From IMG/VR virus record IMGVR_UViG_2703718837_000001: a stretch of 49,704 nucleotides of DNA. The stretch is one strand, 5' to 3'. The translations under genes were made by a program, and so were the position numbers. Shown piece by piece: positions 1 to 1,440 of this stretch (positions are counted from its first letter, which is position 1; each line of letters opens with the position of its first letter). The DNA is from a virus. Taxonomy: Duplodnaviria; Heunggongvirae; Uroviricota; Caudoviricetes. The notes under the pieces were generated by a model. The model was not told the DNA's origin, did no database searches, and saw only the letters and a list, made by a program, of their open reading frames with translations.

Positions 1-529
1 CGGCCAGCAGAAGCGCGCGCTCAGCGGTGTTCATGTAAAGCACGGAGTCCGCCAGCGTGACATCCCCGCCCTTGTTGTTCATGGACAACACATCACCTGC
101 AACGGTGGTGTTGAAGGTCGCAGTGCCACCGGCAGCCGTGCGCTGGTCAGAGAAGCTGTTGATGTTTGTTCCGGCAGAGCGGTTGGTGTTAAAGGTCAGC
201 CCTTTTGTGAAACCAGCCTCTGCTGTGCCCAGGTTCAGGTTACTGACAGCCGCCGTCCAGGTACCGTCATCCTGACGGGTGCCGAGCACACCATATTTTT
301 TGGTGGTGTTGTCACTGGTATAAGCCCCGGCACTGCCCAGGAACAGGCCGTCAGACGCGGCACCACCGGTGGCCACAGCTGTGTTCAGGTCAGAAGCGCT
401 GGTGTAGGCCGTCAGCTGATTATTTACTGCCAGCGCCGGCGCACTGAGTGCTGCCATCACCGCCAGCGTGACCAGTTTTACTCTGGCTGCACCGGGAGAA
501 ATCCGGTGCTTTACAGAACAAACACGCAT
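1..529 (-). CDS. Secreted adhesin-like protein, N-terminal fragment (ORF runs off the window start; autotransporter-passenger-like)
   Basis: Hand translation of the minus strand from ATG 529..527 gives MRVCSVKHRISPGAARVKLVTLAVMAALSAPALA/VNNQLTAYTSASDLNTAVATGGAASDG..., open through position 1 (176 codons, no stop). GGAG lies 8 nt upstream. Signal-peptide-like N-terminus, then Cys-free Gly/Thr/Asn/Ala-rich sequence. Absent from the ORF track because it has no stop in the window. GC is much higher than in the adjacent recombinase gene. Confidence 0.55.
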   Translation of the reverse strand, partial: MRVCSVKHRISPGAARVKLVTLAVMAALSAPALAVNNQLTAYTSASDLNTAVATGGAASDGLFLGSAGAYTSDNTTKKYGVLGTRQDDGTWTAAVSNLNLGTAEAGFTKGLTFNTNRSAGTNINSFSDQRTAAGGTATFNTTVAGDVLSMNNKGGDVTLADSVLYMNTAERALLLA

Positions 530-879
530 TTGAAAGTCTCCATTGTTTTGTGACGTAAAATAATCTTGAATAAAAATCAAATTCCCAGGATAGTCCTGGT
601 GAAAGATTATTCACGGAGTATCTTATATTGTTTCCTTAAACACTTTATAGCAAAAACACAAAAATAGGATTTTTACAGTTTAAGAGTTTTTCTCCCTCCA
701 CTATTGTTAAATACATGAGGTATGTCAGATGCCTCTTGCTGATAAAACTCACCAAATAACAATAAAAAAACCATATAAACAATGAAGCATATCAATTATT
801 CCAATATGCTTTATCTAATTTTTTTATTTGAAAAGTAAAATTTATTTCTTATATTGAAAAAAAACAAAAGGAGGAAATA

Positions 880-1440
880 ATGATACGGCGGTATATCACA
901 ACTACTGAGTGGCGTGCTGTACTTAATTCTGTATCCGGAAAACATAAAGAAAGAGATCGTTGTATTATTTACATGATGTTTACTCATGGTCTACGTGTGT
1001 CTGAAGCCACTCAACTAAAACTAAGTTATCTGGATATAGAATCAAAATCCATATATATTCATCGTTTAAAGAATGGTTATTCCGTTAGTCATCCAATTCC
1101 AGTAGATGAAATGAAATTGCTGAAGCAATGGTTGTCGCGAAGAAAAGAATATAAAGGTAGTGAAAAAAGCGACTACCTGTTTATATCTGATGGTGGAGGT
1201 CGTCTCACAAGACAACGTATATATGATATAATAAAAAAATGTGGTAAGAAAAGCGGCATAACTCATCATATACATCCACACAAGTTCAGGCATGGATGTG
1301 GATTTGCCTTAGCAGAAAAAGGTATTGATACGAGACTGATACAAGATTACCTTGGCCATCGTAACATTCAGCACACGGTGCACTATACTCAAAGTAATCC
1401 TAGTCGATTTAAAAGAATATGGAATCCTCACCCTGAATGA
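880..1440 (+). CDS. FimB/FimE-family tyrosine site-specific recombinase (phase-variation type)
   Basis: 186 aa. Strong RBS aaggagg 6 nt upstream. Near-collinear with E. coli FimB/FimE as remembered: GLRVSEA, IYIHRLKNGYSVSHP, HPHKFRHGCGFALAEKGIDTRLIQDYLGHRNIQHTVHYT (R, HxxR, H, Y catalytic set). Low GC. Confidence 0.88.
   Translation: MIRRYITTTEWRAVLNSVSGKHKERDRCIIYMMFTHGLRVSEATQLKLSYLDIESKSIYIHRLKNGYSVSHPIPVDEMKLLKQWLSRRKEYKGSEKSDYLFISDGGGRLTRQRIYDIIKKCGKKSGITHHIHPHKFRHGCGFALAEKGIDTRLIQDYLGHRNIQHTVHYTQSNPSRFKRIWNPHPE

Follow-up and report, generated by a model that had tools for sequence, protein, structure and literature searches.

A chromosomal-type adhesin operon with a diverged Fim-family recombinase as cargo of a P1/P7-like phage-plasmid

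The window analysed here is the whole of a stretch of viral DNA of 49,704 nucleotides (nt; IMG/VR record IMGVR_UViG_2703718837_000001), and its cargo portion, positions 1-2154, is the right end of a cargo island of about 9.4 kb in a P1/P7-like phage-plasmid of Escherichia coli. The island carries two adhesin-type genes that are closely related to an operon on the E. coli chromosome, and next to them an intact tyrosine recombinase of the Fim family that is transcribed in the opposite direction. Both the proximal invertase and the repeat-bounded segment that accompany the chromosomal operon are absent from the window and from the plasmid-type loci. With moderate confidence we propose that this duplicate operon has had its native control module lost or replaced, that the plasmid adhesins would be transcribed from a fixed promoter and that the recombinase would act in trans; phase variation of the plasmid copy itself is rather unlikely. 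The features on which the following account relies are given below in window coordinates.

1..529, minus strand: 5′ part of the autotransporter gene, comprising the first 176 codons of an 801-residue type Va autotransporter and running past the left window edge
530..549, minus strand: 5′ leader with the ribosome-binding site (RBS; GGAG, the complement of 538-541), the final 20 bp held in common with the chromosomal paralogue
550..879, no strand: AT-rich spacer, 27% guanine plus cytosine (GC), with no homologue detected outside the element
541..548, no strand: left arm of the candidate inverted repeat, CATTGTTT, belonging to the best-scoring imperfect repeat in the spacer
777..784, no strand: right arm of the candidate inverted repeat, AAACAATG, which pairs with CATTGTTT and would enclose a 244-bp element
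585..599, minus strand: small hairpin resembling a terminator, CCAGGACTATCCTGG with a T-rich tail after it, in what would be the leader of the autotransporter
857..864, plus strand: A8 tract directly 5′ of the recombinase RBS (AGGAGG, 869-874)
880..1440, plus strand: Fim-family tyrosine recombinase, 186 residues, intact, in the position equivalent to that of IpuB (distal, divergent)
1441..2100 (right limit approximate), minus strand: decayed element of the IS200/IS605 insertion sequence (IS) family, with a tnpA pseudogene at about 1560-1884
2155..3522, minus strand: start of the P1/P7 backbone, with the remnant of the pmgS-pap intergenic region, the pmgS terminator (2240-2212) and pmgS (2260-3522, 420 residues)

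The adhesin cargo and its chromosomal paralogue

The initial annotation, made from the window alone, had described a secreted, adhesin-like open reading frame (ORF) leading leftwards from position 529 and had recommended that the sequence be extended in that direction. The minus-strand ORF starts with an ATG at 529-527 and stays open for 176 codons, without a stop, to the window edge; its N terminus resembles a signal peptide by inspection, and the passenger is rich in Gly, Thr, Asn and Ala. The identical recombinase is recorded in 127 blocks of the assembly collection, and leftward extension in contigs that carry it yields a β-barrel autotransporter. The full gene (7244-9649, minus strand, in locus L003) encodes 801 residues, of which 543-779 match the PF03797 β-domain (E = 4e-39; TIGR01414, 172 bits), so that the barrel, seen in the full-length copies, lies beyond the window. 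This identifies the gene product as an autotransporter; its adhesin function is a prediction, and the passenger has no match in Pfam and no sequence match in the PDB. The nearest annotated autotransporter in the plasmid database is HyxB, with 34.5% identity over residues 340-801. In one variant, L002, represented by three samples, the autotransporter gene has lost about 61 bp close to its 5′ end (L002 ~9417-9650; window equivalent 355-405) and is split into ORFs of 77 and 721 residues, so some hosts carry a pseudogene version of the plasmid adhesin.

The longer contigs (L003, L019 and L020) present the gene order doc, phd, humD, lxr, inverse autotransporter, autotransporter, recombinase, IS relic and pmgS, so that phd/doc, humD and lxr flank the cargo. 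The inverse autotransporter is an intimin/invasin-type protein of 1727 residues with LysM, IAT_beta, Invasin_D3 and Big_1 domains. Compared with the P1 map, the cargo stands in place of pap, pmgT, pmgU, pmgV, upfM, upfN, upfO and hot. This agrees with the early observation that the P1 backbone is interrupted where pap and pmgT would be expected, as the gene for the 420-residue protein is pmgS, which pap and pmgT follow in P1.

Over window positions 1-549, identity to the 5′ end of a chromosomal autotransporter gene in E. coli strain no107 is 96%. There the order is Wzz, inverse autotransporter, autotransporter (minus strand), about 500 bp, a 191-residue invertase (minus strand), 180 bp and a divergent 186-residue recombinase (plus strand), with SBP beyond. 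The adhesin genes of plasmid and chromosome form a mosaic of 95-100% identity in which stretches of kilobases agree at 100%; most of the differences lie in passenger regions, which are C-terminal in the inverse autotransporter and N-terminal in the autotransporter. On the strength of these alignments the two adhesin genes are best described as a recombining paralogue of the chromosomal E. coli operon. The chromosomal island, found in no107 and others (loci L001 and L029-L066), appears to lack a prior description as far as could be found.

The control region of the chromosomal locus is distinct in content. Its proximal ‘tyrosine-type DNA invertase’ passes the NF007370 cut-off with 239.8 bits, and between this gene and the autotransporter lies a 29-nt imperfect inverted repeat whose arms are separated by 213 bp, defining a segment of about 240 bp. 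The perfect core of the repeat, 9-16 bp in length, consists of TGAACCAAA(GTG) paired with (CAC)TTTGGTTCA, and the distal arm is located 5 bp past the invertase stop codon. The repeat is found at the same place in three variants (L001 8769-9039; L016 250-519; L029 3955-4225) that are 91-96% identical. It lies above chance, as only 1 of 100 null sequences reaches its score for no107 and 0 of 100 for L016. We regard the segment as a candidate Fim-type promoter switch that appears to be undescribed so far, and the chromosomal adhesin operon as probably phase-variable. The core TTTGGTTCA is reminiscent of the fimS core TTGGGGCCA.

A mosaic origin of the cargo had been suggested from the different GC contents of the two genes in the window. 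The proposal holds in view of a discontinuity in identity to the chromosome, which amounts to 95-100% in the adhesins and to 75% at the nucleotide level in the recombinase. The GC values (58.8% in the autotransporter part, 36.7% in the recombinase), by contrast, are not evidence for it, because the same contrast is present within the chromosomal locus.

The boundaries of homology are sharp. Similarity to the chromosome ends at 549/550, 20 bp 5′ of the autotransporter start codon, and resumes only in the recombinase coding sequence (CDS), as determined by blastn and Smith-Waterman alignment. Contigs built with k=31 and with k=141 alike end at 550 minus k. In Logan (k=31), contigs of either locus type, including the chromosomal-type L016, begin at 520 (= 550-31+1), the point at which the chromosomal paralogue would be expected to create a branch. 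For all six pairs that could be checked (6/6), the protein accession numbers of the plasmid-type and the chromosomal-type recombinase differ by no more than a few thousand, which suggests that they stem from the same genome submissions, and the plasmid recombinase appears to co-occur with the chromosomal locus in the same genomes.

In assembly GCA_025241145.1 both loci are located on a single 532-kb contig (JALGNQ010000024.1, ~397.7-517.7 kb; L017 and L045). The order is Wzz, inverse autotransporter, autotransporter, [plasmid recombinase ... ~99.5 kb of P1 ... lxr], inverse autotransporter, autotransporter, invertase, recombinase and SBP. Here the whole P1-like element is flanked by a pair of directly repeated adhesin operons that are 100% identical over about 6 kb. 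The structure could be a cointegrate of the kind that homologous recombination would give, with an assembly chimera as the alternative.

A further observation concerns the inverse autotransporter, whose C-terminal passenger, the tip of the molecule, is only 30-90% identical between plasmid and chromosome and among plasmids, while the remainder is 99-100% identical (L003 1980-2370 versus L001). This divergence suggests allelic diversification of the receptor-binding end.

The Fim-family recombinase

The gene at 880-1440 had been read as a FimB/FimE-like recombinase, and profile searches confirm this assignment. Residues 6-175 match PF00589 (E = 2e-46), and the 186-residue protein, which corresponds to the catalytic domain alone, can be aligned over its full length with FimB, IpuA and IpuB. 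In NCBIfam it scores best, by a wide margin, against the two FimB/FimE subfamilies of ‘tyrosine-type DNA invertase’, NF007370 and NF007371, although the scores stay just under the curated cut-offs (209.3 bits versus 221, and 203.7 versus 222). The catalytic residues R39, K64, H134, R137, H160 and Y169 are all present and are invariant in an alignment with FimB, IpuA, IpuB and relatives. Identity amounts to 47% with IpuB and 45% with IpuA. Among 5.8 billion proteins, just two clusters exceed 57% identity to the recombinase: its own and that of the chromosomal distal recombinase (cluster P0002, no107-type), which is 79% identical at the protein level and 74.5% at the nucleotide level. Searches of IMG/VR, of a one-genome-per-species collection and of JGI metagenomes returned only distant proteins with 23-28% identity and no extra loci.

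The recombinase ORF is intact in every plasmid variant seen, and the unique substitutions among these variants comprise six synonymous and two non-synonymous changes. The CDS of L026, the variant that diverges most, shows a difference of 0.9%, compared with 5.8% for the spacer and about 5% for the IS relic, and is thus 5-6 times less divergent than either flank. This pattern points to purifying selection on the recombinase, which should therefore have a substrate. The gene is preceded by a strong RBS and by promoter-like sites. The A8 tract at 857-864, situated between a promoter-like -10 element and the RBS, varies across isolates (A7, A8, C+A8 and C+A9); this may represent slipped-strand variation that influences expression of the recombinase.

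The intergenic spacer and the mode of control

The autotransporter and recombinase genes diverge from an AT-rich gap of 350 bp (530-879, 26.9% GC), just as the initial annotation had stated. There is no credible ORF in 530-879, and hence no LuxR-type regulator between the two genes. No homologue of the spacer was found in plasmids, phages or E. coli genomes, and comparison on both strands with the chromosomal switch region and with the ipuA-ipuB region of strain CFT073 revealed no similarity exceeding that of shuffled sequences. Weak promoter-like sites are located at 728-700 (minus strand), directed towards the autotransporter, and at 828-855 and 854-881 (plus strand), directed towards the recombinase. 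The spacer (550-879) is also the most polymorphic part of the module, with about 3-6% difference between variants as opposed to 0.5-0.9% in the recombinase CDS.

From the divergent gene pair, the initial annotation had derived a phase-variable surface adhesin, a proposal that is left unsupported: the proximal invertase and a repeat-bounded switch are absent, no repeat stands above chance and 19 assemblies are collinear. In its most explicit form, this explanation holds that the adjacent recombinase inverts the 244-bp segment between CATTGTTT (541-548) and AAACAATG (777-784) in the manner of the ipuS or mrp switches, flips the promoter-like site at 728-700 and thereby phase-varies the plasmid adhesins; we consider it unlikely. 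The two arms form the core of the best imperfect repeat in 520-900 (530-548 with 777-795, 19 nt, 79% complementary), the left arm adjoins both the RBS and the homology boundary, and the promoter-like site within the segment points at the autotransporter; moreover, the neighbouring recombinase is intact and conserved, in a layout like that of mrpI/mrpA. Score and element size also match those of ipuS, whose validated element has 260 bp (repeat score 9; 18 nt, 78%; PMC6083910). However, the repeat score of 9.0 compares with a null of 9.5 ± 1.3 and is reached by 72 of 100 null sequences, the coincidence of the left arm with the homology boundary has p ~0.12-0.16, and the substitution 547T>G, present in five of nine variants, cuts the perfect core to 6 bp without a compensating change. 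Perfect repeats of 8 bp or more number only three; one is broken in 5/9 variants and another in 8/9, and the conserved one would bound only 105 bp. The longest perfect inverted repeat with a spacing of 50-600 bp is a low-complexity sequence of 9 nt that is equalled or exceeded in 215 of 500 shuffles, and the best long-range repeat in 530-2154 scores at the null mean. Fim-like half-sites are missing, and no pairs of fimS (TTGGGGCCA), ipuS-like or chromosomal-type (TTTGGTTCA) core sites occur in 1-2300. All plasmid-type contigs (19/19) are collinear over 1-2400 and display one orientation, a comparison of low power given that the chromosomal loci are in a single orientation as well; in Logan contigs, the path from 520 to past 2100 shows no branch at 777-784. 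Lastly, the spacer evolves at roughly the rate of the adjoining pseudogene. A second repeat, of 39 nt and 72% complementary, flanks the recombinase (844-882 / 1539-1577) and was rejected, as its score equals the null mean and one arm falls in the IS relic.

Action in trans, or no current role, is favoured over local phase variation because the Fim-family recombinases IpuA, IpuB, FimE and FimX cross-act on one another's switches (PMC6083910). The second of these options, according to which the recombinase is an inert remnant of the former control region of the island and has neither a present substrate nor a function, strikes us as improbable, if by no means negligible. It is in keeping with the absence of the cognate proximal invertase and switch, with the local decay evident from the degenerate IS200 element directly downstream, with the recombinase scores under the curated NCBIfam invertase cut-offs and with the disruption of the autotransporter in L002. 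Against it stand the intact ORF and complete set of catalytic residues in all variants seen, the excess of synonymous substitutions and low divergence of the CDS relative to its flanks, and the strong RBS and promoter-like sites. Very improbable, in our estimate, is a function in the biology of the plasmid itself, either in the resolution of multimers or in site-specific integration and excision at the chromosomal island. The contig of GCA_025241145.1, with the whole phage-plasmid between two operon copies, would fit such a role, but the same structure would be expected from homologous recombination within 7 kb of shared DNA at 95-100% identity, and the copies are 100% identical over about 6 kb. 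In addition, no repeated site is common to the plasmid and chromosomal junctions, P1 already resolves its multimers by Cre/lox, and Fim-family enzymes are dedicated invertases.

We therefore prefer, as stated at the outset, a fixed-promoter copy combined with a trans-acting recombinase. According to this model, the phage-plasmid duplicate of the chromosomal adhesin operon would have lost both its proximal invertase and its switch in cis but retained the distal recombinase in diverged form. A fixed promoter within the AT-rich spacer, probably weak or silenced by H-NS, would drive the plasmid adhesins, and this adhesin copy would be placed outside the C1 control of P1 and would not phase-vary by local inversion. 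The recombinase, intact and maintained by selection, would work in trans, with the switch of the co-resident chromosomal island as its target. A more far-reaching version, which we regard as doubtful, is that the phage-plasmid recombinase reprogrammes the host's chromosomal adhesin switch in trans and that the element supplies in addition a switch-independent second copy of the operon, with 7 kb of shared DNA allowing allele exchange and reversible integration.

Several points weigh against the preferred model. The promoter-like sites in the spacer are weak consensus matches and no commoner than in shuffled sequences. A single divergent recombinase with an intergenic switch is a known layout, exemplified by mrpI/mrpA of Proteus. 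The validated ipuS repeat is the top match in CFT073, yet its score of 9.0 equals that of the best candidate in the window and is no better than chance; the statistical case against a local switch therefore has little power. All chromosomal-type assemblies (28/28) are in a single orientation, in a test of orientation that is itself weak in power, and we infer both the inversion of the chromosomal segment and the putative action of the recombinase on it from sequence.

Related systems, phage backbone and IS relic

With respect to the element, the closest comparison is with cargo-bearing P1-like phage-plasmids such as SJ46 and RCS47, which share the P1/P7 backbone at about 97% and the placement of cargo between backbone modules. 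They carry resistance genes, and P1-like phage-plasmids are mostly discussed as resistance-gene carriers, whereas the present cargo is a type V adhesin pair with a Fim-type recombinase. In the mrpI/mrp switch of Proteus mirabilis, one recombinase is likewise divergent from the structural genes across an intergenic control region. However, that switch has long inverted repeats of about 21 bp, of which there are none in the plasmid spacer, and the mrp genes are fimbrial and do not belong to type V secretion.

The fimX-hyxS-hyxR-hyxA-hyxB locus (PAI-X) of extraintestinal pathogenic E. coli is under the control of a Fim-like recombinase (PMC6083910). It contains, in HyxB, the nearest annotated autotransporter, albeit at low identity, and the plasmid cargo lacks an equivalent of hyxR or hyxA as well as the 16-bp inverted repeat. 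Mouse E. coli plasmids that carry hyxB proved uninformative for comparison, having no adjoining recombinase. In uropathogenic E. coli CFT073 the arrangement is ipuB | ipuA-ipuS-ipuR-upaE (Battaglioli et al. 2018, PMC6083910). The plasmid resembles it in having a Fim-family recombinase transcribed away from an operon whose last gene encodes an autotransporter, with the window recombinase at the IpuB position. The analogy with ipuS/UpaE made in the initial annotation is corroborated by the identical architecture of the chromosomal paralogue, which possesses the full layout of two recombinases and a repeat-bounded element. What the plasmid lacks is the invertase at the IpuA position, the 3′ end of which adjoins or overlaps the distal repeat of the switch in the ipu and chromosomal loci, and any recognisable ipuS-like element. 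It also has no LuxR-type regulator, nor does the chromosomal paralogue. UpaE is very large, whereas the plasmid autotransporter has 801 residues and is followed by the inverse autotransporter. The no107-type island matches the plasmid in its adhesins, in the distal recombinase and in its presence in the same genomes, but where it has the proximal invertase and the repeat segment, the plasmid has an unrelated spacer of 330 bp.

Loci that combine a Fim-type recombinase with an autotransporter and cargo on P1-like elements are kinds already known; unusual are the type of cargo, its absence from curated collections and its recombining relationship with the chromosome. In literature searches we found no account of such cargo on P1-like elements. 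Positions 1-2154 have no megablast match in 72,556 PLSDB plasmids or 50,697 phage records, and the cargo occurs in none of 5,426 complete E. coli genomes, save for the match to the chromosomal autotransporter in strain no107. None of the curated collections searched (plasmids, phages and complete E. coli genomes) thus contains the cargo, yet the draft assemblies that do number well over a hundred. If the recombinase does act on a co-resident chromosomal switch, a temperate phage would tune the phase variation of its host, which would constitute a new kind of lysogenic conversion. If a short-repeat switch operates locally, the element would carry a phase-variable adhesin on a phage-plasmid, for which we found no report. 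Should neither apply, the window still provides a clear case of a phage-plasmid that duplicates, and recombines with, a chromosomal adhesin island.

Beyond the cargo, homology to P1/P7 at about 97% extends across 2155-49704 and includes parA, ban, dmt and tail genes; the collinear backbone with its replication, partition and addiction modules identifies the element as a P1-like phage-plasmid. Matches to the C1 operator consensus ATTGCTCTAATAAATTT (at most three mismatches) number eight in the backbone (3757-39084), versus 0.39 expected. None occurs in 1-2154, and control of the cargo by the C1 repressor was rejected for want of an operator there. Transcriptional read-through from pmgS into the cargo is unlikely, because pmgS ends in a predicted strong terminator. 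An Rfam search of positions 1-3000 found nothing.

The stretch between 1440 and 2260 had been put forward as a candidate region for inversion, but it is accounted for by an IS200 relic and the pmgS terminator. Positions 1441-2154 are thus not an empty gap: blastn against annotated tnpA genes reveals an IS200/IS605 relic that starts a few base pairs past the recombinase stop codon. Its tnpA (minus strand, ~1560-1884) retains 46% amino-acid identity in tblastn and is interrupted by stops, frameshifts and a deletion. Two nested perfect hairpins, at 1443-1473 and 1465-1514 with stems of 14 and 20 bp, match the IS end. Within the relic, a poly-C loop at about 1479-1485 differs in length from isolate to isolate.

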